This document shows, one piece after another, positions 3,430-37,812 of a stretch of DNA of 64,000 nucleotides. The DNA lies in the IMG/VR virus record IMGVR_UViG_3300005617_000581; one strand, written 5' to 3'. The number at the start of each line of letters is the position of its first letter. Within the stretch, counting starts at the first letter, position 1. The DNA comes from a virus. Made by a program: the position numbers and the translations under genes. Under the pieces are notes generated by a model. It saw nothing but the letters and a program-made list of their open reading frames with translations. It searched no databases and was not told where the DNA came from.

Positions 3430-3469
3430 CGTACCAGTTCTAACCTACGCCCCGCAAGTCGGTCTTGAT

Positions 3470-4024
3470 CTAGCCGACCGGCGTCGTGAACGGGTCGTCC
3501 GGCGCTGGAACCGACGGCTGACGTCCGAGCTCGGCCGCGACCGCGGGCGGCGTAGAAGGCGACGACGGGCCGGCTGCGGCGGGCACGACGAATCCGCCGA
3601 GCTGCCCGCCGGAGCCTCCGCCGGGACCTCCGAGGGCCTTCTTGTACTCCTTGATGTTCTCCCGCATGGTGCCGTTCCACTCGCGCGGTTCGACGACGGC
3701 GACGGCCCGGCGGCCCAGCAGCGCCTGCGCAATGACGTCCAGCGGGGCGTTCGAGTTGCGCTGGAAGAAGCCGCTGTCCAGGCCGAAGATCGCCATCTGG
3801 CCGAAGAAGATCCGCATCGCGTTGCCGTTCTCGGCCGAGATGACGAACTGGTCGAACAGCGTCTGTCCCGCCTTCGGACCGGACTCGACGCGGTGCTTAA
3901 CCTTGATCATGGGTTTGTCGTTGGACGACTTCGTGGCGACGGATTCGACGACCACGACGGTGAACTCACCCTCGAGGATCGTTGTGGCGTCCTTGTGGAG
4001 GCTCGCCCAGTTGATGGTCGACAA
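3470..4024 (-). CDS. DUF669-like phage single-strand DNA-binding protein candidate with Gly/Pro-rich C-terminal tail
   Basis: 184 aa lying directly downstream of the Sak4-like ATPase, which is a conserved phage pairing. It has a low-complexity GGPGGGSGGQLGG tail. Confidence 0.4.
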   Translation of the reverse strand: MSTINWASLHKDATTILEGEFTVVVVESVATKSSNDKPMIKVKHRVESGPKAGQTLFDQFVISAENGNAMRIFFGQMAIFGLDSGFFQRNSNAPLDVIAQALLGRRAVAVVEPREWNGTMRENIKEYKKALGGPGGGSGGQLGGFVVPAAAGPSSPSTPPAVAAELGRQPSVPAPDDPFTTPVG

Positions 4025-4034
4025 CGCGTACTCC

Positions 4035-7662: not shown

Positions 7663-8080
7663 GCGCGAGCAGCACGTGGCGCTGCGCGGCGTTCGCGTGC
7701 TGGTCGCGGGACGCGACGTACCAGCCCAGGTCGCGCAGCCGTTGATTAGACGCGATCCTTACCGCGGGACCCGGGTTCTGGTGCACCAGCTGCGCGCCGA
7801 GTTCGTTCGCGATCGCGTCGACCTGGCCGAGTACCTCCAGCGCGTGAGGCTGACGCGTCTTACGCGATCCCTGGACGAACCTCTCGATCGCGAAACACGT
7901 CGGACCCTGGGGTGTCGAACGCGGCGGCCAGTGGTGGTCGTCGAGCATGCGCCGGATCATCGTCCCGACGGACGACGCCTGGACCTCGGAGGTTTCCGGT
8001 CGGACGCAGTCGTCGCACCAGAGCGCGAGGCCGGTGACCTTGCCCGGATCGACGCCGAAGATAATCACTCGTCGACCCAC
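7616..8080 (-). CDS. RuvC-like Holliday junction resolvase
   Basis: The N-terminus IFGVDPGKVTGLALW matches the RuvC GIDPG-TG motif. Length is 154 aa. Confidence 0.65.
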   Translation of the reverse strand: MGRRVIIFGVDPGKVTGLALWCDDCVRPETSEVQASSVGTMIRRMLDDHHWPPRSTPQGPTCFAIERFVQGSRKTRQPHALEVLGQVDAIANELGAQLVHQNPGPAVRIASNQRLRDLGWYVASRDQHANAAQRHVLLALASLFPETFASIVGI

Positions 8081-9840: not shown

Positions 9841-10343
9841 CGGTTGCTCCTGTCGAGGAATATGTCGGTGGACAGATCCTTATTGACGACGACGACGAGC
9901 CCGCAGTCGCGCATGAACCGGTACGAGTCGTCGCTGCGCCGGTGTTCGTGTTCCCGCTGCGAGTCCACGACGACGAACTGAAGGCCGGAGTTGGCGATGA
10001 GTTTAGCACAGGGCGTGCAGACGTGACTCGTGACGTAGAGCGTTCCACCCATGCGCAGCGTGCGGTCGCTCATGGTGATCGCGTTAGCCTCGGCGTGAAG
10101 CGCCGGGCAGTCCGAATAGTCGTTCGCCACCGGTTCGCCGTGGTTGCGACCGCGGGTGCACCAGTTGCCACAGCGCGCGTCCGCGTGGTCGAAGCCGCGT
10201 GGCGGTCCGTTGTATCCCTCGCCGATGACCTTACCTTCGACGTCGGTGATCAGCGCGCCGACCTGGTCGCGTTCGCATAGGCTGCGCTTCCCAAGGTCGC
10301 GCGCCATGGCGATGCGTACCTGGTGCCACGACGGTCGGGTCAC
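9837..10343 (-). CDS. dCMP deaminase
   Basis: Zinc-ligand motifs CPALHAEANAI (HAE) and CTPCAKLI (PCxxC) are both present. Confidence 0.8.
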   Translation of the reverse strand: MTRPSWHQVRIAMARDLGKRSLCERDQVGALITDVEGKVIGEGYNGPPRGFDHADARCGNWCTRGRNHGEPVANDYSDCPALHAEANAITMSDRTLRMGGTLYVTSHVCTPCAKLIANSGLQFVVVDSQREHEHRRSDDSYRFMRDCGLVVVVNKDLSTDIFLDRSNR

Positions 10344-11191
10344 TTCGCGACCACCAGCTCGGCGAACGTGTCCAGGTACCAGCGTTCGCTGTCCGTGGGC
10401 AGCGCGACGCTGCCGTTGCGGATCGCGCGGGCGCGCTGGCGGACGTCGTCGAAGTTGTCGCCGCCGTTGCCGATCCCGAAGTCGGGATAGCGTTCCTCGG
10501 TCGCGAGTCCCACCCGGTCAGTGACCTGGTACGACAGGTTGACGTGCTCGTGGTAGAGGTGCATCGACCACGCGGTGTGTGTGTACGTCCCGGGAAGGAC
10601 GCCGAGAACGTTGGCCAGCGTCAGCTGCAGCTGCGTGAACTGGAACATGTCGTACGGCAGGCCCAGCCACGCGTCGTTGGAGCGCATGGTGACGCGCATG
10701 TTCAGCGAGTCGTGGCGCGGACCGAGGCTGAAGCCGAGCGCGACGGTGCACGGGTAGTCGGCCTTGTTGCGGTAGTGGTTGTCCAGGTGGGAATCCCACA
10801 GCGTCACGACCGCTTGGCGACTCCACCAGTCGTCGCGCAGCTTGTCGACGACGAAGCCGAGCTGGTCGGCGACGCGCTCGCCGTAGGCGCCCCAGAAGTG
10901 GCCGTTGGGTTCGAGAAACTTCTTGAAGCTCGGGGCGATCCCGACCAGCCAGTCGGGATCGGAAAACCCGCCGATCAGCTGGATCGCCTCGGCGGCCGCG
11001 ATGCGCGCGTTGAGTCCCCGGCCGCAGCCGGTCGGCAGCGCGAACAGCGGCGACTCGACGTGGATCGTGTAGTCGTCCAGGTTGTACGTCAGTCCGTTGC
11101 GGGACGGGCGGCGCTGGCCGCGGCGGCGGAGGTCCTCGAGGACCTGGGGGTAGACGTCGCGACAGTAGCGACCGTCGATGAGTCGGGCCAC
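10340..11191 (-). CDS. Thymidylate synthase homologue (ThyA fold), possibly a pyrimidine hydroxymethylase/methylase with altered base specificity
   Basis: The catalytic Cys context YPCTVALGF is present. The RSNDAWLGLPYDMFQF block aligns to ThyA R(S)xD..LGxPFN, but carries Asp (PYD) where ThyA has the uracil-specifying Asn. Confidence 0.7.
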   Translation of the reverse strand: MARLIDGRYCRDVYPQVLEDLRRRGQRRPSRNGLTYNLDDYTIHVESPLFALPTGCGRGLNARIAAAEAIQLIGGFSDPDWLVGIAPSFKKFLEPNGHFWGAYGERVADQLGFVVDKLRDDWWSRQAVVTLWDSHLDNHYRNKADYPCTVALGFSLGPRHDSLNMRVTMRSNDAWLGLPYDMFQFTQLQLTLANVLGVLPGTYTHTAWSMHLYHEHVNLSYQVTDRVGLATEERYPDFGIGNGGDNFDDVRQRARAIRNGSVALPTDSERWYLDTFAELVVAK

Positions 11192-12159
11192 GTTCCTAGG
11201 TCCTCCTGCTTAGTAAGCGCGAGCGCGATCAGGTTACCGTACTCGCCGCGCTTAAGATGATGAAAGCGCCGGACGTACTGCGGGTGAGGTACGACGCCGT
11301 GGGGCACCGCGAGCTGCGCGAGTCGTCGCTGCGCGTTGCGGCCGAGCGCGACGGTACGCGGGCGTCCGAGCGAATCCCACAGCCGGCGCGGATCGTCGAC
11401 GTCGCACGCGTTGGCGAGCCCGTAGCGGATCGTCGTTCCCGCGTCGGCGAGCGCGCCGCGCAGGAAGTGTCCCGACGTACCCGGGAACGGCAGGAACGCC
11501 GGATCCGTGTTGGCGCGCGCCTCACGGGACGACGGGTCGACGTGGCGCAGCTCGTGGCGGACGTCGCCGAACAGCAGGAACTCTGGGTGCCGAGGTCCCG
11601 AGTACGTCGTCGTCACCAGGTCGACGACCGTGGACTCGCGGACGTGCGCCAACTTGACGACGCGTTCGACCTCCGAGTTCAGCGGCGACGACCACTGGTA
11701 GAACTGCTGCAGCTGGAACGAGCGCAGCCGCACGTCGCGGTAGGCCCTGTCGACCAGCGGCAGCTCGTCGAGCAGCGCGTCGACGTCCTCGCCGCGCTCG
11801 GCGTAGACGCGCCGGTACGTCGCCAGGTCGCCGTAGACGTAGACCACGAGGGCGCCGAGCCGGGCGAGCAGGGACTCGATGGCCCACCACGCGGCGTCGT
11901 CCAGCTGCGAGACGCGACCGCGCAGGGCGGGATAGACGCGCTCCCCCCAGTGCCAGCGGTCGAGGATTAGGTGCGGCGACCTGCCGGGTCGATACCCCGA
12001 GATCGGCCGGAGGTACTCGTCCAGTGGGTGGCCGACCGGGGGTCCCTTGTGCATCCGGACGACGCCGCGCGCGTGGTCGCGTTCGTCGAGAAATTCTTCC
12101 AGTGCCTCGGCGAGCGTCGTCTTACCGCCGCCGTCCGGGCCCTCTAGGATTATGAGCAC
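11089..12159 (-). CDS. Thymidylate-kinase-like P-loop kinase fused to a divergent uracil-DNA-glycosylase-superfamily domain
   Basis: The N-terminus LIILEGPDGGGKTTLAEAL is the dTMP-kinase signature. C-terminal LPFPGTSGHFL and HPQYVRRF resemble UDG family-4 motifs (PFVGxAGxLL, HPSxxxR). There is an approx 100-nt overlap with the downstream ThyA-like gene through a low-complexity tail. Confidence 0.5.
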   Translation of the reverse strand: MLIILEGPDGGGKTTLAEALEEFLDERDHARGVVRMHKGPPVGHPLDEYLRPISGYRPGRSPHLILDRWHWGERVYPALRGRVSQLDDAAWWAIESLLARLGALVVYVYGDLATYRRVYAERGEDVDALLDELPLVDRAYRDVRLRSFQLQQFYQWSSPLNSEVERVVKLAHVRESTVVDLVTTTYSGPRHPEFLLFGDVRHELRHVDPSSREARANTDPAFLPFPGTSGHFLRGALADAGTTIRYGLANACDVDDPRRLWDSLGRPRTVALGRNAQRRLAQLAVPHGVVPHPQYVRRFHHLKRGEYGNLIALALTKQEDLGTWPDSSTVATVATSTPRSSRTSAAAASAARPATD

Positions 12160-12683
12160 CGGTGCCTCATCGCCGGGTGGAGTACCTCGTCGTCGCCGCG
12201 CGCGAGCTCGACGAGCCGCTCGAGCCAGCCGACCCAGTAGATGGACTCGGTGGGTCGCCCGGGTAGTTCACCCTCCGGCGACGGCTCGCTGGTAAGCGCG
12301 TGGTCGCGCGCCGCGCGCAGCCGGTACGTCCGATGGAGGTAGCCGGTCTGCTCGGCCGTCGAGCGCTCGCGGCCGAACCAGTACGACTGGACCTGGTGCC
12401 GCCCGCGGTAGCGCGAACGGCGCCCCCAGTTGCGCGCTGCGCCCGCGACGTCGGCGAGTCCTAGGGCTAGCCACGACGTCGCGTCGCGGGTCGTAGCGAC
12501 GGCGCGACGCGCGCCTGCGGCGATCCGGCGCCGGACCTCGGGAAGCTCGGCGACGAGCTGACGCGTCGGCGTCGGCTGCGCGTAGATCGGGACGTCGTCG
12601 ATAGAAACGAGGAGGTCGCCGTCCCCGGTGGACTCGGGGACGGCGACCTCGGATTGGATTGGCAGTGCTGCGACTGTGGTCAC
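12150..12683 (-). CDS. Hypothetical protein
   Basis: 177-aa ORF in the leftward operon with a 10-nt overlap with the downstream gene. No recognisable motif. Confidence 0.45.
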   Translation of the reverse strand: MTTVAALPIQSEVAVPESTGDGDLLVSIDDVPIYAQPTPTRQLVAELPEVRRRIAAGARRAVATTRDATSWLALGLADVAGAARNWGRRSRYRGRHQVQSYWFGRERSTAEQTGYLHRTYRLRAARDHALTSEPSPEGELPGRPTESIYWVGWLERLVELARGDDEVLHPAMRHRCS

Positions 12684-12738
12684 TTGGGGGCCCTTCGGTT
12701 GAACTGGAGCAACCTAGGTATCCTACAACCGACCGATG

Positions 12739-13800
12739 CTATTGCATCAGCGTTCGCAGCGTCTCGGACAGGGCTTCGTACTTGGCGACCTTGGCGAGCA
12801 TCTCGTCCGAGACCGTCGGCGAATCGGCGATCTTCTTGAGTTCGCCGCGCAGCGCGTCGAACTGGCGCTGGACGTTGGCCGTCGTGACGATGAGCGTCGC
12901 GAACGCGTCGGCGAGCTGGTCGAGAATGCCGTAGACGGCCGCGAGGTGCGCGGACAGCGGCGTCCCGGTCGCTGCTGGGTGCTGTTGGGTAGGTGGTGTC
13001 ACGGTAAAGTTTATCCTCGTCTCTCGTTCTCGCTTGAGCTGTTCCTCGAGTTCCTGGCGCGCGGCCTCGGCGGCGCGGGCCGCGCGAACGGCGATCATCC
13101 GGGTGGAGTGAATCTTCAGGTGCGCCCGGATCGAACCCGGGTTGAATCCCCACGTCGTGCACTCGGGCGCGTTCGGCGAGTTGCACATGAACACGGTCCG
13201 GCCGTCCTCGAGGAGCGTCTCGAGGACGGTGCTCGTCGTGTACGGTCCGTGCGCGTTGCCGAACGGCATGACGGCGGGCTGCGCCGCGATCACCCGCGAA
13301 CCGTCGATCAGCGTCCGCGACGGCGCGCAGAACAGCGATACGTACGGACGGTCCGGGCGCGCGTCGTGCGCACCCGGGTCGACCAGCGCCATCCGGCGGG
13401 GTTGCTGGTGCTGCTGTGCGTCCGTCTCGGACGCGGCCGGTTCGTCGGGTTCGGTCCGCGAGCCGTCGCCTCCCCCGTTCGCGATCATCGCGGCGTTGAT
13501 CTCGTCGATGCGCGCCTGGTTCGCCGCGCGGTCGGCCGCGATCTTCAGCAGTCGGTTGTTCTCGCGTACCCGCGCCGTGGCGGCCTCCAGCTTGGCCAGT
13601 CCGTGTCGGTTCGCCTCGGCGATCGCGTTCTTTTCGACGTAGCCGCGGCCCGTCGGCGTCGACGCGAACGTAAACAGCAGCTTCGCGCGCTGGTCGAGCA
13701 CCTTGTAGTGTCCCGAGTTCGAGTAGACGACCTGCCAGCCGACGTCCTCGCAGCGTTCCTTGAGCTTGAGCGGCCACTCGCGGCCGGTGCTAACTCCCAC
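12739..13800 (-). CDS. Hypothetical protein with coiled-coil regions
   Basis: 353-aa ORF containing a C2H2-like FMCNSPNAPECTTWG..H..H segment and K/E-rich helical stretches. Confidence 0.45.
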   Translation of the reverse strand: MGVSTGREWPLKLKERCEDVGWQVVYSNSGHYKVLDQRAKLLFTFASTPTGRGYVEKNAIAEANRHGLAKLEAATARVRENNRLLKIAADRAANQARIDEINAAMIANGGGDGSRTEPDEPAASETDAQQHQQPRRMALVDPGAHDARPDRPYVSLFCAPSRTLIDGSRVIAAQPAVMPFGNAHGPYTTSTVLETLLEDGRTVFMCNSPNAPECTTWGFNPGSIRAHLKIHSTRMIAVRAARAAEAARQELEEQLKRERETRINFTVTPPTQQHPAATGTPLSAHLAAVYGILDQLADAFATLIVTTANVQRQFDALRGELKKIADSPTVSDEMLAKVAKYEALSETLRTLMQ

Positions 13801-19486: not shown

Positions 19487-19948
19487 GTGAACCAGGAAAG
19501 AATTCGCCTGTGGGTCGAGGCCCTGCGCTCCGGTAGCTACAGGCAGGCCCGCCACAAGCTCAAGGTAGCCCTGCGCGACTCGGACGGAAATTTGACCGAG
19601 GACGTCGGCTACTGCTGCCTCGGCGTCATGTGTGAGGTGGCGATCGCGAACGGCCTGAACCTGGCCACCGAGGAGGAACCCGGCGACGCCGAGCCGTACT
19701 ACCGCTACGGCGTCCCGGGTCGGCCCGAGTCGTGGTCCGGAGGCTACCCGCCGAGCGTCGTCCTGGACTGGTACGGCATCGGCGGCACCGCTGACGGCGG
19801 CCCGATCTACGTCGGCAGCCACCCCGACGGGAAGCGCATCTACGCCGTCGAGGCGAACGACGACATCCGCTGGGACTTCAACAGGATCGCCGACGGCGTC
19901 GAGCGGATCTACCTGACCGATCCGACCGCCGAGGAGGTCGCGTCGTGA
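19487..19948 (+). CDS. Hypothetical protein, paralogue family member 1 (RYCCLGV family)
   Basis: Shares ER(I/V)xLWVxALRSGxY ... RYCCLGVxCEVA..NGL ... DWYG ... FxRIAD..ExIYL with three neighbouring genes. GTG start preceded by GAGAGGAGAACGAGAC. Confidence 0.6.
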   Translation: MNQERIRLWVEALRSGSYRQARHKLKVALRDSDGNLTEDVGYCCLGVMCEVAIANGLNLATEEEPGDAEPYYRYGVPGRPESWSGGYPPSVVLDWYGIGGTADGGPIYVGSHPDGKRIYAVEANDDIRWDFNRIADGVERIYLTDPTAEEVAS

Positions 19949-20364
19949 GCGTGAACAAGGAGCGGGTCGCGCTGCTCGTCGCGGCGCTGCGCTCGGGACG
20001 CTACGCCCAGGGGCGGGGCGCCCTGAAGCGCCAGCGTCCCGACGACCGGTACTGCTGCCTCGGCGTGGCGTGCGTCGTCGCGGCCGAGAACGGCCTGCAG
20101 CTGCGGACGGAAAATTTCGTAAACGCCGTCAAGTTCGGCGATCCCGGCGACTTCGCCGCCGACGCCAGCTGGTCGATCCTGCCGTCGTCGGTGCGCGACT
20201 GGTTCGGGTTCGTCCTGGGTGATCCGATCCTCACCGGCGAGGACGGCCGGAACAAGGGCGCCGCCGTCTGGAACGACGACTACGCGCGCGACTTCGCGTG
20301 GATCGCCGACGCCTTCGAGCGTACCTTCCTTACCGATACGCCGAACCAGGAGGTGCCGTCGTGA
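19945..20364 (+). CDS. Hypothetical protein, paralogue family member 2
   Basis: Same motif set as member 1 (RYCCLGVACVVA, DWFG, FAWIADAFE). GTGA-type overlap start. Confidence 0.6.
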   Translation: MSVNKERVALLVAALRSGRYAQGRGALKRQRPDDRYCCLGVACVVAAENGLQLRTENFVNAVKFGDPGDFAADASWSILPSSVRDWFGFVLGDPILTGEDGRNKGAAVWNDDYARDFAWIADAFERTFLTDTPNQEVPS

Positions 20365-20774
20365 ACGTCGACCGGGAGCGCGTTAAGCTGTGGGTAGACG
20401 CCCTGCGCTCGAGCGAGTTCGAGCAGGGATACAGCCTGCTCAGGACGCCCGAGGGGCGCTACTGCTGCCTGGGCGTCGCCTGCGAGGTCGCGCGCCGTAA
20501 CGGCCTCGAGCTGGACAGCTGGAAGGACGAGGACGGCGACGTGGCGTACGGCGAACGCCACGGCTCGGACTGGTCGACGACGCAGCTGCCGGGCCAGGTC
20601 GCGGATTGGTACGGCTTCGTCGACGACGCGGGCAACTCCGTGGTAGATCCGCCGCTCGGCCGCGGTCCCGACGCCTACGTCGCGACGTTCGTCAACGACT
20701 CGCTGGACGCAAATTTTTCGCGGATCGCGGACCTGGTCGAGCAGATCTACCTGGCCCCGAAGGAGGAGAAGTGA
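20361..20774 (+). CDS. Hypothetical protein, paralogue family member 3
   Basis: In-frame GTG 20361 overlaps the upstream stop. Motifs RYCCLGVACEVA, DWYG and FSRIADLVEQIYL are present. Confidence 0.6.
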   Translation: MNVDRERVKLWVDALRSSEFEQGYSLLRTPEGRYCCLGVACEVARRNGLELDSWKDEDGDVAYGERHGSDWSTTQLPGQVADWYGFVDDAGNSVVDPPLGRGPDAYVATFVNDSLDANFSRIADLVEQIYLAPKEEK

Positions 20775-21151
20775 CGGACAACCTACCGGCGGTTACCGAC
20801 GAGCAGGTCGCGGAGCTCGAGCGGCTCCACGCCGAGAACCGCGGTCGCGACGCCGTCGCCCTGCGCGAACCGGAGCGCGATCCGAACCGGCGGCGTACGC
20901 TTCCCGCGAACGCGTACGTCCGGCCGGGCCTCGGGGACCTGCCGCTGTCCGTGCAGCTGCGGGCGGCGTTCCGGCTGCTCAACGAGACGCTGCTGCCGCT
21001 GATCGACTCGGTCGAGGAGCAGCAGCCCGAGGTGCTGCAGTGCTCGGTCTGCCAGCGCAACCTCGGCGGCTGGCCGCTGCGCGTCCTGGAGGAGCACTAC
21101 TTCCAGCACACGTGGCTGCAGCGGCGCCTGGCGAAGATCGGAATCCGGTAG
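20771..21151 (+). CDS. Hypothetical protein
   Basis: GTG 20771 overlaps the upstream stop. About 126 aa with a CSVCQ segment. Confidence 0.45.
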   Translation: MTDNLPAVTDEQVAELERLHAENRGRDAVALREPERDPNRRRTLPANAYVRPGLGDLPLSVQLRAAFRLLNETLLPLIDSVEEQQPEVLQCSVCQRNLGGWPLRVLEEHYFQHTWLQRRLAKIGIR

Positions 21152-21160
21152 GAGGTCGCC

Positions 21161-21412
21161 GTGGCCTACACGCACGGTACCGCGGGAACGTATGGGCGCG
21201 GCTGCAGGTGCGCCGAGTGCCGCGAGGCCTGGCGGGTCTACAGCGTCGCCCGGCGCGCGGTTCGCGCCGAGCTGCTGCGCAACGATCCGACGCTGGTCGC
21301 CCACGGCCGGACGTCTACCTACGACAACTGGGGCTGCCGGTGCGACGAGTGCCGCGTCGCGGGGTCCGAGACCCTCCGGCGGCGTCGCCGCCACCGTCAC
21401 CGGTTTAGCTAG
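21161..21412 (+). CDS. Small Cys-rich protein with duplicated GTxGYxxGCRCxxCR motif (putative zinc-binding nucleic-acid-binding protein)
   Basis: AYTHGTAGTYGRGCRCAECREAW and GRTSTYDNWGCRCDECRVAG are two copies of one motif, followed by a basic tail RRRRRHRHR. Confidence 0.45.
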   Translation: MAYTHGTAGTYGRGCRCAECREAWRVYSVARRAVRAELLRNDPTLVAHGRTSTYDNWGCRCDECRVAGSETLRRRRRHRHRFS

Positions 21413-21436
21413 GAACGATCAGACAGGAGGAACAAG

Positions 21437-21901
21437 GTGACTAACCGCGAACGTATTCAGAAGTTCGTCGACGGGCTGCGCTTCGGCGGCTACCGGCAGT
21501 ACTACGGCGGCCTCGGGCGCCGCGAGCCCGGGACGGGCGACCGGTTCTGCGCGCTCGGCGTGGCCTGCGAGGTGGCCCGCGCGAACGGCCTGGACGTCGG
21601 CGTCGACTATTCGGCGTTCGGCGGCTTTGTGAGTTACTACGACCCGGCGGATCCGACCCTTAAGACGGCGGAGGTGCTGCCGCGGCTGGTCGCCGACTGG
21701 TACGGCGTCGCCGAGCTGGGCATGCCGGTCGGCGTGACGCACGACGAGGTGCTCGCGCTCAACCCCGGGATCGTCTTCGGCCCGGGCTACGACGGCCGCG
21801 CGACGGACCTGGTGTCGCTGAACGACGGCGTCCGCCTGACGTTCGCGCAGATCGCGGACCTGGTCGAGCGCACGTACCTGAAGGAGGACGACCCGGTCTA
21901 G
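21437..21901 (+). CDS. Hypothetical protein, paralogue family member 4
   Basis: Contains RFCALGVACEVARANGL, DWYG and FAQIADLVERTYL. Separated from members 1-3 by two unrelated genes. Confidence 0.55.
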   Translation: MTNRERIQKFVDGLRFGGYRQYYGGLGRREPGTGDRFCALGVACEVARANGLDVGVDYSAFGGFVSYYDPADPTLKTAEVLPRLVADWYGVAELGMPVGVTHDEVLALNPGIVFGPGYDGRATDLVSLNDGVRLTFAQIADLVERTYLKEDDPV

Positions 21902-22634: not shown

Positions 22635-22919
22635 ATGGAACCCGGCGTGTCGGCTAGGTTGCGCTACGTCCGCACGAAGCGAGGCGAGCTGCGCTGTGCC
22701 TCGCCGTGGTGCAAAAAGATCATCTACAACACGCAGGCCGAGGCCGAGCGGGAGGCGCGCTACCTGGCGCGCCTGCGCGACGAACCGGTGATGCGGGCCT
22801 ACCGCGACCACGGAGGCTGGCACCTGACGTCGCGGACGAACGAGGACGTGCAGCGTAAGCGCCTGCTCCACCACATCTACTGGATGTTGTGGCGCGAACT
22901 ACGAAGGAGGGCGTCGTGA
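22635..22919 (+). CDS. Hypothetical protein
   Basis: 94-aa ORF with RBS GGAGGT. Confidence 0.45.
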   Translation: MEPGVSARLRYVRTKRGELRCASPWCKKIIYNTQAEAEREARYLARLRDEPVMRAYRDHGGWHLTSRTNEDVQRKRLLHHIYWMLWRELRRRAS

Positions 22920-23281
22920 CTCGACAGCTACTGTTCTCGGTTACGCTCAAGGACTGCGAGGTGCAGCACTTTCGCTCCGGCGGCAAGGGTGGCCAGAACC
23001 AGAACAAGCGCGACACCGGCTGCCGGATCATTCACCACCCGTCGGGCGCGCGCGGTGAATCGCGCGAGGAGCGCTCGCAGCTGCAGAACAAGCGCGCCGC
23101 GTTTAGGCGCATGGCCGCGACGTCGCAGTTTAAGATCTGGATCGCGCGCCAGACGTTCGAGTACGACCAGCGCAGCCGGCTCGGCGATCCGACCAAGCGG
23201 TGGTCCGGCGAGCTGCGCGACGAGGACCTACTGATCGAGGTTCGGCGTCACGGTATCTGGCACAGTGTCGAAAACCTATGA
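22916..23281 (+). CDS. GGQ-motif release-factor-like protein (ArfB/YaeJ-type peptidyl-tRNA hydrolase domain)
   Basis: HFRSGGKGGQNQNKRDTGCRIIHHPSG matches the class-I release-factor GGQ catalytic loop (SGxGGQxVNKxxSAVRxxH). GTG start overlaps the upstream stop, with RBS AAGGAGG. Confidence 0.6.
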   Translation: MTRQLLFSVTLKDCEVQHFRSGGKGGQNQNKRDTGCRIIHHPSGARGESREERSQLQNKRAAFRRMAATSQFKIWIARQTFEYDQRSRLGDPTKRWSGELRDEDLLIEVRRHGIWHSVENL

Positions 23282-23325: not shown

Positions 23326-23730
23326 ATGGACGAGCACGACAAGCACGACATATACCGGCGGGTCGCGCGCGGCGCGGCGCTGCTCGACGAGCAGGTTCCC
23401 AACTGGCGCGACCGGATCGACGTCGACCGGCTAAACATGAGGTCCTGTGAGAACTGCGTCCTCGGCCAGCTGTACCTCAACGAGTACGGCGCGCACGACT
23501 GGTCCGCGGGCCTGCAGGCGCTGGGCCTCACGGCCGGCGACACCGCGGACGAGGACTTCGATGACCTGCCCGGCTGTCCCATTGGGAGCGCGGCCAGCTA
23601 CGGGTTCGCGGTGTTCGACGACGAGTTCGAGACCTACGTCGCCGTCAACGACGCGCTCGGCGTCGCGTGGCGCGCGCTGCTGCGCGGCGACGAACCTACT
23701 ATGGCCACCGACGAGGAGGTAACGTCGTGA
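23326..23730 (+). CDS. Hypothetical protein, paralogue pair member A
   Basis: AALLDEQVPNWRDRIDVDRLNMRSCENCVLGQLY is repeated in the next gene. Preceded by CGAGAGGAGAACGAGAAG. Confidence 0.55.
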   Translation: MDEHDKHDIYRRVARGAALLDEQVPNWRDRIDVDRLNMRSCENCVLGQLYLNEYGAHDWSAGLQALGLTAGDTADEDFDDLPGCPIGSAASYGFAVFDDEFETYVAVNDALGVAWRALLRGDEPTMATDEEVTS

Positions 23731-24068
23731 CTACTAGTCCCCTCCTGGACCACCGTGTTCGCGCGGGGATCGCGCTGCTCGACGAGTCCGGACCGACGAA
23801 CTGGCGCGCGCGCGTCGACGTCGATAAGCTCGACCTGGAGAACCCCCGCAGCTGCGTCCTCGGCCAGGTCTACGGGACGTTCGACGACGGAATGGCCGCG
23901 CTGGACCTCAGCTTCTTCGAGGGGGCGCGCTACGGGTTCGTCACCGGCCTCGGGCTGCGCTACGACCGTGACTCCTGGCGTAACCTGACGGACGCCTGGC
24001 GGGACGCGTTCACATCCGTGCCTCCGCGTCGCCGCCGCTGGTTCTGGCCGTTCGCGCGGCGCGCCTGA
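23727..24068 (+). CDS. Hypothetical protein, paralogue pair member B
   Basis: IALLDESGPTNWRARVDVDKLDLENPRSCVLGQVY. GTG overlap start. Confidence 0.5.
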   Translation: MTTSPLLDHRVRAGIALLDESGPTNWRARVDVDKLDLENPRSCVLGQVYGTFDDGMAALDLSFFEGARYGFVTGLGLRYDRDSWRNLTDAWRDAFTSVPPRRRRWFWPFARRA

Positions 24069-25050: not shown

Positions 25051-25339
25051 CGTCGTCGGCATGCACCTCAGCCCGCCACTCGTGGTCCACGACCCCGAGC
25101 GGTGCGCCGGGCAGACCTGCTGCATCCACAACCCGTCCGAGCACCGGATGATCGCGTGGCCGCAGCTGTGGCGGGCGGATCGCTACCTGATGGAGCGCGT
25201 CTGTCCGCACGGGATCGGTCACCCCGATCCGGACGACCTAGCGTATAGGCGCCGCGTCCGCGGCGCGGACGACGCGTACTGGGCGGGCGTTCACGGCTGC
25301 GACGGCTGCTGCGCGGGAGGATATCTTGAACAAGCCTAG
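25043..25339 (+). CDS. Hypothetical Cys/His-rich protein
   Basis: Has CAGQTCCIHNPSEH...CPHGIGHPDPDD...GCDGCC. GTG 25043 or ATG 25061. Confidence 0.4.
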   Translation: MPDVVGMHLSPPLVVHDPERCAGQTCCIHNPSEHRMIAWPQLWRADRYLMERVCPHGIGHPDPDDLAYRRRVRGADDAYWAGVHGCDGCCAGGYLEQA

Positions 25340-25808
25340 GGCCGTCGTCGTCGACGTCGACGGCACGATCACGATCTACTCGGCGGACCGCGCGACGCGC
25401 GCGCGCGACTCGCAGCCGCGCCGTGAGGTCATTGAGGTCGTTTACGCGCTGTACGCGTCGAGCTACGCGATCGTGTTCGTGACGGCTCGGCCGGAGGCGC
25501 AGCGCGCGGCGACGGGTGAATGGATCGCGCAGCACGTCTTTCGTGCCGCGTTCGACGGGGCGCTGTTACTGATGAAGGACACCGGCGACGACGAACCCGA
25601 CGTCGCCTGGAAGCGCCGGATCTACGACGAGGTGATCGAGCCGCGTTACGACGTGCAGCTCGCGATCGACGACATGGAGCGATCGGTGTCCGTCTGGCGC
25701 TCGCGCAACGTCACCGTACTGCAGGTTCGCGCCGCGCACGTTCACCCCGAGGCTCTCGTGAGGTGGCGCGACGCGGAGCACGCGACCGTCCTGGAGGGAG
25801 GAAAGTAG
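25326..25808 (+). CDS. HAD-superfamily phosphatase (polynucleotide 3'-phosphatase / nucleotidase-like)
   Basis: VVVDVDGTIT is the HAD motif I DxDGT. TTG start after GGAGGA. Confidence 0.5.
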   Translation: MNKPRAVVVDVDGTITIYSADRATRARDSQPRREVIEVVYALYASSYAIVFVTARPEAQRAATGEWIAQHVFRAAFDGALLLMKDTGDDEPDVAWKRRIYDEVIEPRYDVQLAIDDMERSVSVWRSRNVTVLQVRAAHVHPEALVRWRDAEHATVLEGGK

Positions 25809-26774: not shown

Positions 26775-27647
26775 GTGATGTTCATTAGTATTTTGATCTT
26801 ATTGTTGGTCGTGGCCGGACTGGTCGCCATCCTCAAGGGCAGCGTCGGCACGGGACAGGACGAGTTTTCGATCCGCTGGATCGGCGGGGTGCTGCTCGGC
26901 ATCGCGTTCGTCGTGTTCCTGCTCGCGACCATCGTGATCGTTCCGACTAAAAACGTCGGCGTCGTGACGGCGTTCGGCCGTCCGACGGGCACGCTTCACA
27001 ACGGCATTCACGTCGTCTGGCCGTGGGAATCGGTTACCGACTACGACGCGACGATCCAGACGTTGTCGACGTCTGACATGCACGTGCGAATGGTCAACGG
27101 CACCGCTACCGCGAACGTCAACGTGACACTTAACTGGCGCCTGGAAGGTGACATTCAGCAGATTCACGTCGACTGGCGCGAGTTTAGCCGCATCCAGACA
27201 TACGTCATTCAACCTCGACTGCAGGACGCGCTGAACAAGGAGTTCATCGACTTCGACCCACTCGTCGCGCTGAAGCAGACTGGCGGTAAGCCGATCTCGA
27301 TGGTGACCATGGAGCAGCGCGTCGCCGAGCGTCTGCAGCACAGCCTGCCCGCCGGTATCTTCGTCGATCACCTGCAGCTGCCGCTGGTCGTCTACCCCGC
27401 GGTCGTCCAGGACGCGCTGAACGCCTACCAGAAGGAACTGGCTAACACGCAGGTCGCGCTGCAGCAGAAGATCACGGCGCAGGCTCAGAAGGACGCGCTG
27501 GATATCTTGTCGCAGGTCCGGATGTCGCCGGAGGCGTTCCTGCAGCAGTGCCTGATCATGACCGAACGCCTGGCGCAGCAGGGTAAGATTATCTCGCAGA
27601 CCTGGTCGTGTGTGTCTGGTTCGGCCGGTACTGTAGCGATTAAGTAG
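26775..27647 (+). CDS. SPFH/band-7 (prohibitin/HflK-like) membrane protein
   Basis: N-terminal TM helix, then a TKNVGVVTAFGRP...HVRMVNGTATANVNVTLNWRL SPFH core and a coiled-coil tail. Lower GC than surrounding genes. Confidence 0.55.
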   Translation: MMFISILILLLVVAGLVAILKGSVGTGQDEFSIRWIGGVLLGIAFVVFLLATIVIVPTKNVGVVTAFGRPTGTLHNGIHVVWPWESVTDYDATIQTLSTSDMHVRMVNGTATANVNVTLNWRLEGDIQQIHVDWREFSRIQTYVIQPRLQDALNKEFIDFDPLVALKQTGGKPISMVTMEQRVAERLQHSLPAGIFVDHLQLPLVVYPAVVQDALNAYQKELANTQVALQQKITAQAQKDALDILSQVRMSPEAFLQQCLIMTERLAQQGKIISQTWSCVSGSAGTVAIK

Positions 27648-31844: not shown

Positions 31845-31932
31845 GGTACACGAGGACCGCGAAATCTTCGCGGTCCTCGGCTACTTTGGCCGACAAAGTG
31901 ATATTATGAACAGGAAACGAGAGGAGAACGAG

Positions 31933-32982
31933 ATGAAGCTCAATAAGACACGCCGCTCGACGGCGACCCTGCTCGGGGTCGCGTTCGGGGACGCGATGGG
32001 ACGCAACACGGAGTTCGTCTACTCCGTCAAGGAGATCGTGCGCCGCAACCTGGTCGTGTACGACCTGCCGCGCCCGGCCCTGGTCACCGACGATACCGAC
32101 ATGACGCGCTACGTCTGTCGCGCGCTGTTGGCTGTCGACGACGTCGCTAACCTCGAACACGCGTTCGTCGAGCAGTTCATCGACTGGTACGACCAGATGG
32201 ACTCGGGCCGCAAGCCCGGCTCGTCGTGCATCCGCGCGGTGCGCAGCCTGATCGCGGACTCGAAGCACGACTGGCTGAGCAACACGGACCCGTTCGCCAA
32301 GGGATGCGGCGCCAACATGCGCGTCGCGCCGGTGGCGCTCGACACGCGCCTGGTGCCCGACTTCGAGGCCGTCGCGAACGTCGCGCAGCTCCAGTCGGCG
32401 ATCACGCACGCGCACCCGACCGCCCTGGCGGCCGCCGAACTGACGGCGTACGCGATCTGGCTGCTGCGCTGGGAGAACTTCGCGCTCGACGCGCGGCTCA
32501 TCGAGGCGCTGCTCGAACGGTGCGACTCGCAGCGCGGCGTCTACCGCGAGGACGTGCTCGGCGACCTGGCTAAGTATTGGTCCGACCGCAAGGCGATGGC
32601 TGGCTACGGTCGGCGCTGGAAGCCGGTCAACGCTAAGCGCGCGATGCAGCTCGGCTGGGACGAGGTGCTCGGCTCGATCCTCGACGTGTACGACGCGTAT
32701 ACGCTCGAGGACGTCGGCGACGACGTCTGTTCCTACACGGGAGGTGGCTGGATCGCCGAGGAGGCGCTAGCCGGTGCGCTGCTGGCGGCACTGTGGCACC
32801 CCGAAAATCCGGTCCGCGCACTGATGCGCGCCGCGACGACGTCGGGTGACTCGGATTCGCTGGCCAGCATCGCAGGCGCGCTTCACGGCGCGTGCTACGG
32901 GTACGACGCGTGGCCTCACGACTGGTACGCCCGCATCGAATTCGGCGACGAGCTCGCCGAATACGGCGAGCGCTGGGACTAG
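31933..32982 (+). CDS. ADP-ribosylglycohydrolase family protein (ARH/DraG-like)
   Basis: GVAFGDAMG, TEF and VTDDTDMT are the ARH-family Mg-binding signature. Preceded by ACGAGAGGAGAACGAG-ATG. Confidence 0.6.
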   Translation: MKLNKTRRSTATLLGVAFGDAMGRNTEFVYSVKEIVRRNLVVYDLPRPALVTDDTDMTRYVCRALLAVDDVANLEHAFVEQFIDWYDQMDSGRKPGSSCIRAVRSLIADSKHDWLSNTDPFAKGCGANMRVAPVALDTRLVPDFEAVANVAQLQSAITHAHPTALAAAELTAYAIWLLRWENFALDARLIEALLERCDSQRGVYREDVLGDLAKYWSDRKAMAGYGRRWKPVNAKRAMQLGWDEVLGSILDVYDAYTLEDVGDDVCSYTGGGWIAEEALAGALLAALWHPENPVRALMRAATTSGDSDSLASIAGALHGACYGYDAWPHDWYARIEFGDELAEYGERWD

Positions 32983-34079: not shown

Positions 34080-35669
34080 GTGGCCGATCGTCCCTCGGCG
34101 CGTACCCGCGTCGCAGCTTCAAGCCACGACGACCGTACGCCGCTCGTCGGCGCGTCGCAGATGCTGCTCGGTCTACCGGGTGAGGACTACGCGCAGCGCT
34201 ACAAGTCGTGGCAGGACGAGCTGTGGGACTACACGCGCAACGTCGGCGAGTACGGCGGCGTCATGGACTGGTTCGCGTCGGGGATCTCGCGCATGCACCT
34301 GGTCGCAGCTGTCCAGCGTCCGGGTGAGCAGCGCGAACCCGAGATCCTGGCCGACGGACCCGCGGCCGACCAGATGCACCAGCTCGCCGCGTACGCCGCG
34401 GGCGGCGAAACACAGTACCTCTATAAGTGGGGTCGACACCTCGGGGTGCCCGGCGTTGGTTTCTTCATCGCGTACGACAGGGACGGCATGCGTCAGTTCG
34501 ACGTCAAGTCCGCCAAGCAGATCAGGCGCTCCGAGAAGCCCTTCTACGACGCGCAGAACCGAATCATTAAGACGCCCAAGGGCGAGGTAATCCGCGGCTT
34601 CGACGTCGAGGTCGCCGAGGGGCGCTGGGAACAGCTTCCCTACGAGTCGCTGGTCGGCCGCATCTACCGGCCGGACGACGAGCTGGACTACGAGGTATCC
34701 TCGTGGTCGCGCGGCGCGCTGACGACGCTACGCGAGATCGACCTGCTGAACCGACACGTCGTCGCTACGCTGCTGTCCCGGCTCGTCTTCAACGGCATCC
34801 TGTTCATACCGAGCGAGGTCACGTTCCCGGTCAACCCGCAGTTCAAGGACGCGCCGGATCCGTTCATCGCGGAGCTGGCGGCCGTCGCGGCGCGCGGCAT
34901 CAAGGACCCGGGCTCGCCGCTGAGCGCGCTGCCGCTGCCGCTGCGCGTCAAGTCGGACATGATCGAGCACTTCAAGCACCTGGTCATCGCGACCGGGGTC
35001 GACCCTAAGATCAACGAACTGCGCGCCGCGGCGATCCAGCGCCTGGCGCAGCAGCTGCCCGCGCCGCCGAGCGCGATGGAGGGCACGCAGGACTCGAACC
35101 ACTGGAACGCGTGGAAGGACTCCGAGGACAACATCAAGCTGTACTTCGGACCGACCATGGAAATCCTATGTGGCGGACACACGGACATCTACCTGCGGCC
35201 GATGTTGAAGGCGGCCGGTCACCCCCTGGAGACCTCCGACGGCGGCCGGATCATCTGCTGGTACGACGCATCGGACCTGATCAACAAGCCGGACAACTCG
35301 GAGAACGCGCGCGACGCGCGCGAAAAGATCGTCATCTCGGACGGGTCGTACCTGCGTCAGCTCGGCATGGACGACGACGACATGGCGACGGACGAGGAAC
35401 GCCGCAAGCAGATCCTGACGACGCTCGCGATCCAGGGGCTTCCTATTCCCGACTCGTACTACCTGCTGTACCCCGACGATAAGCCGGAACCGGGCGTCGA
35501 CCAGCTCGGCAACCCGATCCCGCAACCCGGACTGGCGGCCGGTGGACCGTCGCCTAACGCTGGCCCGTCGGGCGGATCCGCCAACGGTCGACCGGCCGCC
35601 GACCAGTCAACCGTCAAGACGCGCGCGCCGAAGGCTGTACCTACCCCGAGCGGCCCACGGGGAGGTTAG
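34080..35669 (+). CDS. Portal protein
   Basis: 529 aa, first large gene of the head-morphogenesis block immediately upstream of the MuF-like gene. It has an acidic/Gly-Pro C-terminus. Confidence 0.6.
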   Translation: MADRPSARTRVAASSHDDRTPLVGASQMLLGLPGEDYAQRYKSWQDELWDYTRNVGEYGGVMDWFASGISRMHLVAAVQRPGEQREPEILADGPAADQMHQLAAYAAGGETQYLYKWGRHLGVPGVGFFIAYDRDGMRQFDVKSAKQIRRSEKPFYDAQNRIIKTPKGEVIRGFDVEVAEGRWEQLPYESLVGRIYRPDDELDYEVSSWSRGALTTLREIDLLNRHVVATLLSRLVFNGILFIPSEVTFPVNPQFKDAPDPFIAELAAVAARGIKDPGSPLSALPLPLRVKSDMIEHFKHLVIATGVDPKINELRAAAIQRLAQQLPAPPSAMEGTQDSNHWNAWKDSEDNIKLYFGPTMEILCGGHTDIYLRPMLKAAGHPLETSDGGRIICWYDASDLINKPDNSENARDAREKIVISDGSYLRQLGMDDDDMATDEERRKQILTTLAIQGLPIPDSYYLLYPDDKPEPGVDQLGNPIPQPGLAAGGPSPNAGPSGGSANGRPAADQSTVKTRAPKAVPTPSGPRGG

Positions 35670-35670
35670 T

Positions 35671-37812
35671 ATGACGAGGTTTGCCGGTTGGTCTGAGCGT
35701 GAGCTACTCCGGCGTGAGCGGGTGTTTGACGGCCTACTCAACAAGGCGACGCGATCCGTCGGGCGCGTCGTTGCGGCCAACATGCGCGCCGCGCTGACGG
35801 CCGCGGCGGCCCCGGACGACGAGTACGTTCCGAGCGGCTGGCAGCCCGCGGGCGGGGAAGTCGCGACCGCGTGGGCGTACCACGTCGACCACGAGCTGAT
35901 GCCGTACCTCGAGGACGCGTTCCTCGACTCGGCGGCCGACGTCCACGGCGCCGCCGAGCTCGCGGCCGGGGTATCGATCACGAAGGTCACCGACGAACTC
36001 GCGAGCGACTACCTCGCGGCGGCGCGCAACCGACTAGTCGGCGTCGGCGACCTGGTCTGGAACGCGATCCGCGTCGAGCTGTCCAGCGGCTACGCCGCCG
36101 GCGACGGCGTCGAACAGCTCGCGACGCGCGTACGTAAGATCGTCGACGTCACCGAGCCGCGTGCCCGGACGATCGCGCGGACCGAGCTGATCTCGGCCGT
36201 CAACGCGTCGAACCTGCTGCAGGTTAAGATCGCCGGGTTTACCGACGCCGAGTGCTCTAAGTGCTGGCTGGCGACCGACGACGAACGCACGCGGATCGCG
36301 CATCACCAGGCCGACGGGCAGTGCGTCGGGCTGTGGCAGCCGTTCATCGTCGGCGGCGAAGGCCTGCAGTTTCCGGGGGATCCGTCCGGGCGGCCCGACA
36401 ACGTCATCAACTGCCGGTGCAGCCTCGGGTATGAGTTCCACGACGACGATCCGCTAACCGCCGCGGAAGATTTCGGGCTCGACTGGGATCCGACCGAGCA
36501 TCCGCGCAACCCGGCGGACGGACGGTTCGTCGACGTCGTCGGCGCCGTCGAAAGGTTCATCGACGCCGACGAAGCTACCAGGATGCACGTCGCGATGACG
36601 AAGGGTAAGCCCTGGACGAAGGCACAGGACAAGGCCCTGGAGGGCTACGTCACGCGTACGTTCACGCCCGTTAATGGCGTGCTGCGCGGCGAGCAGGAAT
36701 CCGACGAACGAACCGACCAGGAAATCGCGAACATTCACGCCGCGATGAGGCCGACCACGCAGCCGATCCGCGTATCGCGACGCGTGCAGTCGACGGCGTT
36801 CGGAATTCCACCGGGCGTCGGGGCCGACCGCGACTACAGCGGCGACCTGCAGCACCTGGTCGGGCGAACGCTGCGCGAGCCGGGATTTCTGTCGACGTCG
36901 ACCAACGAACGATGGAGTAAGCCGACGCTGGTGGCGGGGCGCATGATCGTTATCGAGCTGGACGTACCGGCGGGCACGCCCGCGGCGTTTCTCGGCGCGC
37001 CCGGCGGACCCGGCATGTCACACGAGAGCGAGCTGCTGCTCGACCACGGCACCAAGTTCGTCGTCACTAAGGTGTTCAAGGAACCCAACGGCCCGACGCG
37101 CGTCTACGGCCGCGTCGTTACCGACACGCTCGTCGCCAAGTACGACCCGAAGGAGCTCCGCGACGACCACGGCCGCTGGACGGATACGCCCGGGTCGGGT
37201 GCCGCCTACAAGATGTTCGACTACCTGGCGGACCAGCGCGACCGGAACGACTTCGAGCGCGAGATGGACGACAACGGCCCCGCGCCGACGACGGAGCAGT
37301 TCAGCGAGCTGGAGCTCTACGCCGACAGCGGCTACGACGACATCAACACGGCGCTCCGCCGAAAGCGAACGCACGGCGAAGATCCGAGTGACGACGTACT
37401 CAACAGCATCACGCTCCTCAGGGACGCCATGCGCCCGACGCCGCGCGACGTTCAGGTACGTCGCCACGTCGAACCGGACGCGTTCGGCATTAAGACTAAC
37501 CACCAGGTCCTACTGAGCAAGCACCACGACTGGTCGAGCGAACTTAAGCACCTCGTGGGAAGGACGCTCGAGGAACCAGGATTCATGTCTACGTCGGTAG
37601 ATCCCAACTGGTCGAGCCACGCGACATACGGAATCATGATCGAGGTCAACGTGCCCGAGGGTACGCCGGCGTACTACATGGGAGGCATGGACGGTCCAGG
37701 CCTCGAAGGTGAGTTTGAGCTTCTCCTTAACGCGGGAACTCGGTTTAAGGTTTTGGACGTGGTACACGAGTCGGGACGGATCACGACGGTGCGCGCGGAG
37801 GTGGTTTCGTGA
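35671..37812 (+). CDS. MuF-like head-morphogenesis protein fused to two tandem C3/VIP2-type ADP-ribosyltransferase domains
   Basis: MuF core has RIAHHQADGQ...NCRCS. ART1 has YVTRTFTPVNGVLRG, VSRRVQ (Arg), FLSTST (STS) and SHESELLL (ExE). ART2 has YDDINTALR, QVRRHV, FMSTSV and EGEFELLL. Confidence 0.75.
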   Translation: MTRFAGWSERELLRRERVFDGLLNKATRSVGRVVAANMRAALTAAAAPDDEYVPSGWQPAGGEVATAWAYHVDHELMPYLEDAFLDSAADVHGAAELAAGVSITKVTDELASDYLAAARNRLVGVGDLVWNAIRVELSSGYAAGDGVEQLATRVRKIVDVTEPRARTIARTELISAVNASNLLQVKIAGFTDAECSKCWLATDDERTRIAHHQADGQCVGLWQPFIVGGEGLQFPGDPSGRPDNVINCRCSLGYEFHDDDPLTAAEDFGLDWDPTEHPRNPADGRFVDVVGAVERFIDADEATRMHVAMTKGKPWTKAQDKALEGYVTRTFTPVNGVLRGEQESDERTDQEIANIHAAMRPTTQPIRVSRRVQSTAFGIPPGVGADRDYSGDLQHLVGRTLREPGFLSTSTNERWSKPTLVAGRMIVIELDVPAGTPAAFLGAPGGPGMSHESELLLDHGTKFVVTKVFKEPNGPTRVYGRVVTDTLVAKYDPKELRDDHGRWTDTPGSGAAYKMFDYLADQRDRNDFEREMDDNGPAPTTEQFSELELYADSGYDDINTALRRKRTHGEDPSDDVLNSITLLRDAMRPTPRDVQVRRHVEPDAFGIKTNHQVLLSKHHDWSSELKHLVGRTLEEPGFMSTSVDPNWSSHATYGIMIEVNVPEGTPAYYMGGMDGPGLEGEFELLLNAGTRFKVLDVVHESGRITTVRAEVVS

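Follow-up and report, generated by a model that had tools for sequence, protein, structure and literature searches.

A stand-alone GGQ domain encoded by an uncultivated phage: a predicted minimal release factor from a family carried by actinobacteriophages

The locus and its gene content

The window analysed here, a stretch of 64,000 nucleotides (IMG/VR record IMGVR_UViG_3300005617_000581), is a phage genome from a metagenome contig with a G+C content of about 65%. It encodes a primase/helicase, a DNA polymerase, a large terminase, a portal, a major capsid protein, and a tape measure protein, in agreement with the original prediction that the gene studied here belongs to a phage. None of 50,697 deposited phages is related to the window at the nucleotide level. 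The capsid protein of the window shares about 33% identity with the capsids of Gordonia and Streptomyces phages, and the capsid matches are mostly records of phages with actinobacterial hosts. We infer an actinobacterial host for this phage from these similarities.

The gene of interest encodes a small protein with a GGQ motif and is found in the interval between the primase and the terminase, within a block of small genes oriented in the same direction (Table 1). Four elements led us to place its start at the GTG in position 22916: the Shine-Dalgarno-like motif that precedes it, its 4-nt overlap with the stop codon of the preceding gene, the homologues that share the same first residue in the alignment, and the identical gene call of 121 aa in ENA (ERZ27251806, contig k141_2806559, 68,414 bp). 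The overlap suggests that the preceding gene and the GGQ gene are co-transcribed and translationally coupled. The product of the former has no match in Pfam, PHROG, or PADLOC.

Table 1. Features of the GGQ gene and of its immediate surroundings (positions are those of the window).
Feature	Position	Strand	Details and basis
Upstream gene, 94 aa, function unassigned	22635..22919	+	Stop overlaps the start of the GGQ gene (GTGA)
Shine-Dalgarno-like AAGGAGG	22904..22910	+	5 nt before the GTG start; read from the sequence
Stand-alone GGQ (RF-1 domain) gene, 121 aa	22916..23281	+	GTG start, TGA stop at 23279-23281; ORF, Pfam, PHROG, ENA call
Catalytic loop region FRSGGKGGQNQNKRDTGCRIIHHPSG, residues 19-44	22970..23047	+	GGQ codons at 22988-22996
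Long helix (predicted), residues 55-88, break at 68-69	23078..23179	+	AlphaFold model, family-profile alignment
Variable, low-confidence linker, residues 89-105	23180..23230	+	Indel-rich unconserved columns, low pLDDT
C-terminal beta-hairpin (predicted) LLIEVRRHGIWH, residues 106-117	23231..23266	+	Homologue alignment, predicted strands

The only RNA-repair-like gene in the window is a PNKP-type HAD phosphatase located 2 kb downstream of the GGQ gene. There is no RNA ligase in the window, and the searches with ARAGORN and Rfam revealed no tRNA, no tmRNA, and no other Rfam family in it. A search for defence or anti-defence functions with PADLOC gave no match for the GGQ protein or for four of its neighbours.

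A predicted release-factor domain 3 with a C-terminal hairpin

The original prediction had recognised in this gene the GGQ loop of class-I release factors, and the profile searches bear it out. The loop lies inside the ORF, and the protein matches the Pfam RF-1 profile (PF00472) in residues 8-69 (E 1.5e-15, 57.6 bits vs a gathering score of 35) and PHROG 3122, 'RF-1 domain peptide chain release factor', in residues 1-84 (E 3.1e-36). Judged by these scores, the match to release factors is far above chance level.

The GGQ motif is intact (residues 25-27). We found at least 2,002 homologues in the metagenome protein collection (E ≤ 0.001), and the best 120 of these 2,002 are 104-146 aa long (median 118 aa) and all have the GGQ (120/120). 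In an alignment of 28 homologues, the invariant residues span the entire catalytic loop (D13, C14, Q17, F19, R20, G22, G23, G25, G26, Q27, Q29, N30, G35, R37, H40, S43, G44, G47, E48, R50, R53, Q55, and N58), and those of the helix are A62, F63, M66, F72, and W75. The conservation extends to the C-terminal hairpin, where W115 is invariant and E108 nearly so in the same alignment, and where the motif E..R..G.W is present in the window protein and in 109 of the best 120 of the 2,002 homologues. Because the loop residues are invariant among the 28 homologues and the GGQ is kept in all of the 120 listed ones, catalysis is likely to be retained. The RF-type catalytic domain is intact, and the purifying selection acting on it is strong.

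We built an AlphaFold model of the window protein using the 28 homologues (mean pLDDT of 82). In this model, a sheet of three strands (residues 15-21, 32-40, and 45-49) surrounds the GGQ loop, and there are also a long helix (residues 55-67 and 70-88) and a C-terminal beta-hairpin (strands at 108-111 and 114-117). The pLDDT is 90-98 over residues 31-80, averages 51-64 over residues 81-100, and falls below 50 at residues 91-97. In the predicted architecture, domain 3 of a class-I release factor, including its long helix, is joined through a short linker to a small, conserved beta-hairpin. The family-profile alignments fit this architecture: residues 12-91 align with 237-315 of RF2 (1gqe_A) and residues 12-105 with 298-390 of mtRF1. 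The long helix lines up with helix alpha-7 in domain 3 of release factors, and residue 315 of RF2 is the end of that helix, just ahead of the switch loop.

The comparison with RF1/RF2 and mtRF1/mtRF1a shows what is missing: the window protein matches domain 3 and lacks domain 1 as well as domains 2/4, which carry the PxT and SPF motifs. Since these domains are absent, it cannot recognise stop codons, and any release activity of a GGQ domain devoid of a codon-recognition domain must be codon-independent. We also considered that the hairpin could be a remnant of RF domain 4. It would fit the HMMER alignment to mtRF1, which reaches profile position 105, opposite 'ERIRTYNF', but the hhalign alignment to E. 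coli RF1 extends no further than residue 64 of the phage protein. We regard this origin of the hairpin as speculation.

The GGQ domain is of the RF1/RF2/PrfH type

The original prediction had described the protein as an ArfB-type rescue factor. We compared it with the known lineages of GGQ proteins, and the results concur in placing its GGQ domain with RF1, RF2, and PrfH and not with ArfB and ICT1. The hhalign alignment to E. coli RF1 (residues 217-272) is gapless, with 41% identity and a probability of 97.2%. The alignment to ArfB has a probability of 71.8% and requires two gaps in the phage family, one of 20 and one of 4 residues, which face ArfB residues 39-64 at the site of the ArfB/ICT1 insertion, after the second strand. 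The NCBIfam models give the same ranking, with every model under its cut-off: 54 bits for prfB and 49-51 for prfA (cut-offs of 370-423, domain 3 only), 46 for prfH (TIGR03072, cut-off of 166.65, model positions 106-163 only), and 25 for the ArfB equivalog (NF006718, cut-off of 100, E 1.2e-5, residues 8-40 only). When the family profile was searched against all PDB sequences, the scores were 58 bits for mtRF1, about 51 for RF1, 49.7 for PrfH, 46-48 for RF2, 32 for C12orf65 (E 1e-6, nearly full-length alignment), 17 for ArfB (E 0.05), and 12.9 for ICT1 (E 1). The structural comparison with Foldseek placed ribosome-bound RF2 and RF1 on top, MTRFR (C12orf65) at rank 37, and ICT1 at rank 48, and did not include ArfB among the top 50 matches of the model. 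Among GGQ proteins, ArfB and ICT1 thus show the weakest similarity to the phage protein: ArfB is the most distant of the bacterial groups in both sequence and fold, and only the mitochondrial ICT1 is further away by sequence.

The C-terminal part of the protein also differs from that of ArfB. The basic C-terminal tail of ArfB, of about 40 residues, is needed for binding and for sensing the empty mRNA channel; the GGQ domain is inactive without this tail, removal of the last 10 residues abolishes the activity, and residues R118, L119, K122, K129, and R132 are required (PMC3950681). None of these five residues has a counterpart in the window protein, in which the predicted hairpin occupies the place of the basic tail. 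Over its last 40 residues, the window protein carries a net charge of -2 and E. coli ArfB (in a sequence identical to that of PDB 4v95) one of +13; in the best 120 of the 2,002 homologues, this charge ranges from -8 to +4, with a median of -2.

A true ArfB mechanism, in which the C-terminal element enters the empty mRNA channel and licenses the GGQ domain, could be proposed given that both proteins are stand-alone GGQ domains of close size (121 aa vs 140 aa), and given the weak match to the ArfB model and the hhalign probability mentioned above. The missing insertion, the missing basic tail, and the equivalog score largely exclude it from what the sequence indicates, and we deem it very improbable. 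For these same reasons, the name ArfB should not be used for this protein. Hence, the original description stands in what concerns a GGQ release-factor-like protein and falls in what concerns the ArfB type. The window protein may still resemble ArfB and ICT1 in a broad sense, as a stand-alone GGQ domain that acts independently of the codon. Devoid of stop-codon-reading domains and of an ArfB-type tail, it is best described as a predicted minimal release factor.

The resemblance to PrfH (RF-H) deserves a separate comparison. PrfH is a conflict-related rescue factor that has spread horizontally and is linked to RNA repair (PMC9304027, PMC6514570). It shares with the phage protein the RF1/RF2-type GGQ domain, and RNA-repair genes also lie close to the GGQ gene in a few of its relatives. 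However, PrfH has about 200 aa and recognises the damaged decoding centre through a domain 2/4 module, which the phage protein, with its 121 aa, lacks. Furthermore, PrfH rescues ribosomes with damaged 16S rRNA and pairs with RtcB2, whereas Pfam revealed no RtcB family among the scanned ORFs of the window, which were the neighbours of the GGQ gene and the large ORFs.

An actinobacterial family borne essentially by phages

We searched for relatives of the protein in deposited phages using tblastn and obtained 251 records, 206 of which are Mycobacterium phages. The Mycobacterium carriers include cluster C1 (Bxz1, Catera, and others), EniyanLRS (Wildcatvirus), Nanosmite (Reyvirus), and prophages of M. 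abscessus. Annotated homologues in mycobacteriophages are 51-55% identical to the window protein over 94-99% of its length, and the gene is strongly conserved in lytic and temperate phage groups alike. The non-actinobacterial tblastn records that we checked, from Listeria, Salmonella, and human fecal samples, are not members of the family: their matches to the GGQ core are weak, with 32-40% identity, and they are either short sequences with no annotation or a bacterial record matched at the RF2 gene of the host.

The annotated homologues correspond to the PHROG 3122 family of actinobacteriophages, represented by proteins of Bxz1, Catera (gp202), and McGee (gp209) in cluster C1, of EniyanLRS (gp129), of Nanosmite (gp140), and of prophiGD54-2. 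They have the same size as the window protein, the same signature in the GGQ loop (DC.VQ.FRxGGxGGQNQNKRDTG), and the same helix and C-terminal hairpin. The difference lies in the carrier: the window copy is in an uncultivated phage that has no nucleotide match among deposited phages.

Among the metagenome proteins, 338 clusters (50% clustering) reach E ≤ 1e-10. The top 150 of these 338 clusters have 82-216 aa, with the exception of one artefact of scoring (P0124), a repeat protein of 2,837 aa with 22 matched stretches and no GGQ. Peptide patterns specific to the family identified 108 confirmed loci in IMG/VR, and only 20 loci in GTDB (one genome per species). The close loci in GTDB are from Dermatophilaceae, Cellulomonas, Amycolatopsis, and Mycolicibacterium. 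Judging from its distribution in the tblastn, metagenome, IMG/VR, and GTDB searches, this is essentially an actinobacterial family borne by phages.

The annotation of this gene is already routine in hundreds of mycobacteriophages. Burroughs and Aravind, who surveyed the release-factor families of bacteria, list RF1/RF2, ArfB, and PrfH, and the phage GGQ family is absent from their list (PMC6514570). We found no biochemical or genetic work on any of its members in the searchable literature. The window gene is thus a divergent addition to a family that is known and annotated, and is biochemically uncharacterised.

Recurrent association with tRNA genes

We analysed the genetic context of the gene in a sample of 72 non-identical viral loci of IMG/VR. 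There is at least one tRNA within 2 kb of the GGQ gene in 28 loci, and in 16 the tRNAs are found on both sides within this distance, i.e., the gene is inside the array. Twenty loci have at least 10 tRNAs within ±10 kb, and 6 of the 72 have a tmRNA. The density of tRNAs across the sample is 0.82 per kb within 2 kb of the gene vs 0.33 per kb at 2-10 kb, and 479 out of 543 tRNAs are in the same strand as the GGQ gene. When the GGQ proteins were clustered at 80% identity, the association with tRNAs was observed in 14 of the 39 clusters, and the gene was embedded in arrays in 8. The association is therefore multi-lineage. It is nevertheless a tendency and not a rule, since the window has no tRNA and 28 of the 72 loci have none within ±10 kb.

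Some loci illustrate the extent of this association. In one of them (L008), the gene is inside an array of 29 tRNAs and a tmRNA, followed downstream by a T4-type RNA ligase 1 (Rnl1), a PNKP, and an RlaP. In another (L006), tRNAs flank the gene, and a Ro/TROVE protein is encoded upstream. The GGQ gene of Mycolicibacterium palauense is within an array of 21 tRNAs. A gene with an RF-1 domain was also described as the core coding sequence of the G1 tRNA arrays (PMC5966550). In the cluster C1 phages, on the other hand, the gene is found among replication and recombination genes.

We searched with tblastn for Rnl1, PNKP, RlaP, and TROVE and found them near GGQ genes in L008-L010, L047, L060, L072, L006, L028, and L078 only. 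These neighbours are sporadic and restricted to few lineages, which led us to reject a tight link with RNA repair. A conserved partner gene was rejected as well. A small gene overlaps the start of the GGQ gene in EniyanLRS and in Nanosmite, as it does in the window, but no homology links these three upstream proteins to one another (13-19% identity), and tblastn revealed no neighbour from the window, including the 94-aa gene, that recurs beside GGQ genes at other loci. The latter gene is thus local context rather than a conserved partner. In summary, the recurrent neighbours of the GGQ gene are tRNA genes, and no protein-coding neighbour is conserved.

Proposed function and alternatives

The gene, fold, motif, and context lead us to favour, with moderate confidence, the hypothesis that the protein is a codon-independent and ribosome-dependent peptidyl-tRNA hydrolase that supports phage translation. 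[quoted passage not shown] By analogy with the structures of release factors bound to the ribosome, the GGQ loop would be placed in the peptidyl-transferase centre, as it is by RF1/RF2, the helix would span the A site like alpha-7, and the C-terminal hairpin would provide a small anchor close to where the switch loop of release factors lies. The ester bond would then be hydrolysed without codon reading, freeing the ribosome and the tRNA. The catalysis, the mode of binding to the ribosome, and the class of substrate are predictions in this scheme. Lacking any element to sense the mRNA channel, the protein could act on stalls on intact mRNA. A truncated mRNA need not be required, which would suit stalls at sense codons following cleavage or depletion of tRNAs. 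In related phages, the GGQ gene, the tRNA arrays, and the tmRNA would make a translation-maintenance kit. The original prediction had suggested that a phage copy could rescue stalled ribosomes, and such a role in the maintenance of translation is consistent with relatives found inside phage tRNA arrays, beside tmRNA, and occasionally near Rnl1/PNKP/RlaP or Ro. The main weakness of this model is that it must explain how a domain lacking an ArfB-like tail binds to ribosomes and spares those that are elongating.

The alternative that best withstands the data, even if we find it unlikely, is a function like that of MTRFR, which would release nascent chains from 50S-peptidyl-tRNA complexes after dissociation of the stalled ribosome and not on the 70S. 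MTRFR is likewise small, has a GGQ domain that lacks the ArfB insertion, and carries a C-terminal helical extension, and its alignment with the phage family is nearly full-length. It acts on split 39S subunits together with MTRES1, an S4-like protein. However, the phage protein resembles more closely RF1/RF2/PrfH (47-58 bits vs 32 for C12orf65), and the motif in the C-terminal hairpin is peculiar to the phage family. Moreover, MTRFR works together with MTRES1 whereas the phage gene has no conserved partner, and the loci show no sign of ribosome splitting.

Slightly less probable still is a take-over or regulatory factor, which would cause the premature release of host nascent chains, leading to shut-off, or termination at programmed stalls and arrest peptides. 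The protein has no element to sense the codon or the mRNA and hence no obvious restriction to defective complexes. Its gene is in an early/middle block of small genes in the primase-terminase interval, and such blocks are a common site of phage take-over genes. Yet, indiscriminate release would also harm the translation of the phage, the repeated proximity of the gene to tRNA arrays and tmRNA indicates that translation is supported rather than blocked, and the conservation of the gene is strong in both the lytic and the temperate groups.

Finally, the protein could be a non-catalytic mimic, either a decoy that titrates a host factor (e.g., a defence protein or PrmC, the methyltransferase that modifies the GGQ) or a blocker of the A site, given its close likeness to domain 3 of RF1/RF2 (41% identity), to which PrmC binds, and the presence of PDB 2b3t among the structure matches; we give very little credit to this possibility because the GGQ of the 120 listed relatives and the loop are kept, as expected of an enzyme, when a decoy could lose the Gln, and because PADLOC is blank for the protein and its neighbours.

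Codon-independent rescue by the protein raises the question of how a GGQ domain without a codon reader or a tail for the mRNA channel finds the right ribosomes. This question concerns the whole family of tail-less GGQ proteins and not just the locus of the window. To our knowledge, phage-encoded translation factors are rare. A compensation for hosts lacking ArfB is not a general explanation for this one, because 2,245 out of 3,213 genomes of Actinobacteriota carry arfB (PMC11633108).

At the level of the family, a role in counter-defence is plausible. We tentatively propose, as a possibility that we hold with far less assurance than the hydrolase function itself, that the tail-less phage GGQ proteins are distinct release factors for which no stop codon is required and the mRNA channel need not be empty. 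They would act on ribosomes stalled on intact mRNA at hungry sense codons or with cleaved tRNA in the P or A sites, using the hairpin as a new type of A-site anchor, and would counter tRNA-targeting immunity, such as anticodon nucleases and the depletion of tRNAs, alongside the tRNA arrays and the tmRNA. If the family does rescue the stalls caused by tRNA loss, it would add a new component to the means by which phages respond to defences directed at tRNAs, and this would help explain why the GGQ gene is so frequently placed inside phage tRNA arrays.

tRNA arrays and RNA repair genes around GGQ-family members

The richest 'translation repair kit' around any of the GGQ-family members that we have seen is that of L008, one of the other loci encoding a relative of the window's stand-alone GGQ-domain protein. 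Its GGQ gene is embedded in an array made up of 29 tRNA genes and a phage tmRNA (tag EAFVPARSYALVA), and the array is followed by genes for a T4-type RNA ligase 1, a full polynucleotide kinase-phosphatase (PNKP), and an RlaP nucleotidyltransferase. The gene arrangement is the same in the loci L009 and L010. Association with tRNA genes is also found in a bacterial genome, that of Mycolicibacterium palauense (locus L094), where the GGQ gene is flanked by tRNA-Asp and tRNA-Glu within a 21-tRNA array, in agreement with the published 'G1 tRNA array' (PMC5966550).

The window has a PNKP-type gene near its GGQ gene. The product matches the phosphatase domain of PNKP and shares ~29% identity with the corresponding half of the full-length PNKP encoded beside the GGQ gene in L008. 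The kinase domain is absent from this protein, and the window ORFs covered by the scan include no RNA ligase.

In two further loci with GGQ relatives, L006 and L007, ARAGORN called a tRNA-like gene ~170 nt 5' of the GGQ gene; its 'anticodon' is abnormal in having two bases (ga). The call may be false, or the gene may encode a tRNA whose anticodon loop is unusual.

The HMMER search of the clustered representatives ranked P0124 fourth by adding up 22 weak matches to its repeats. This high rank is a scoring artefact: P0124 is a 2,837-aa tandem-repeat protein lacking the GGQ motif, and we rejected it as a member of the family.

Features of the window and of loci with GGQ relatives
Feature	Position	Strand	Evidence
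Thymidylate synthase-like gene and adjoining second gene	window 10340-11191, 11089-12159	both -	Pfam
Four DUF8296 genes (~137-154 aa)	window 19487-21901	+	Precomputed Pfam matches (PF26948), ENA gene calls
Paralogous pair	window 23326-23730, 23727-24068	+	BLASTP, E 6e-13
PNKP-type phosphatase (160 aa)	window 25326-25808	+	HAD_PNKP PF25109, E 1.4e-24
SPFH/Band 7 protein (290 aa)	window 26775-27647	+	PF01145, E 4.7e-18
ADP-ribosylglycohydrolase	window 31906-32982	+	PF03747, E 1.9e-51
Head-region protein, toxin-like domain (756 aa)	window 35542-37812	+	PHROG 3895, E 5e-31
Head-region protein, toxin-like domain (1353 aa)	window 37809-41870	+	PHROG 3895, E 1e-36
L008 locus	1-13105 of ENA ERZ27253680 k141_1744810
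L008 GGQ gene	2761-3105
L008 tmRNA	6301-6659
L094 locus with 21-tRNA array	3839-10411 of NZ_NVQF01000007.1
L094 GGQ gene	10001-10327
tRNA-like gene	L006 9761-9831; L007 1438-1508		ARAGORN

Other genes of the window

Immediately 3' of the GGQ gene lie two paralogous genes, whose products are 58% identical across a 40-residue N-terminal motif (ALLDE..P.NWR.R.DVD.L....CVLGQ.Y) and gave no match in family searches. In the ENA gene calls, the four DUF8296 genes are broken up by two small genes lacking Pfam matches; our own Pfam scan (E ≤ 0.01 to 0.1) did not reproduce the four matches.

Two very large head-region proteins carry ADP-ribosyltransferase toxin-like domains, joined in the shorter one to a head-morphogenesis (MuF-like) domain in a single chain. 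Together with the ADP-ribosylglycohydrolase encoded slightly upstream, they could constitute an injected toxin with its reversing enzyme. The thymidylate synthase-like protein (PF00303 matched in part, E 4e-21) and its neighbour, which has a weak N-terminal match to thymidylate kinase, could form a nucleotide-modification module. The SPFH/Band 7 protein, encoded just upstream of the terminase gene, is phage cargo of an uncommon sort.
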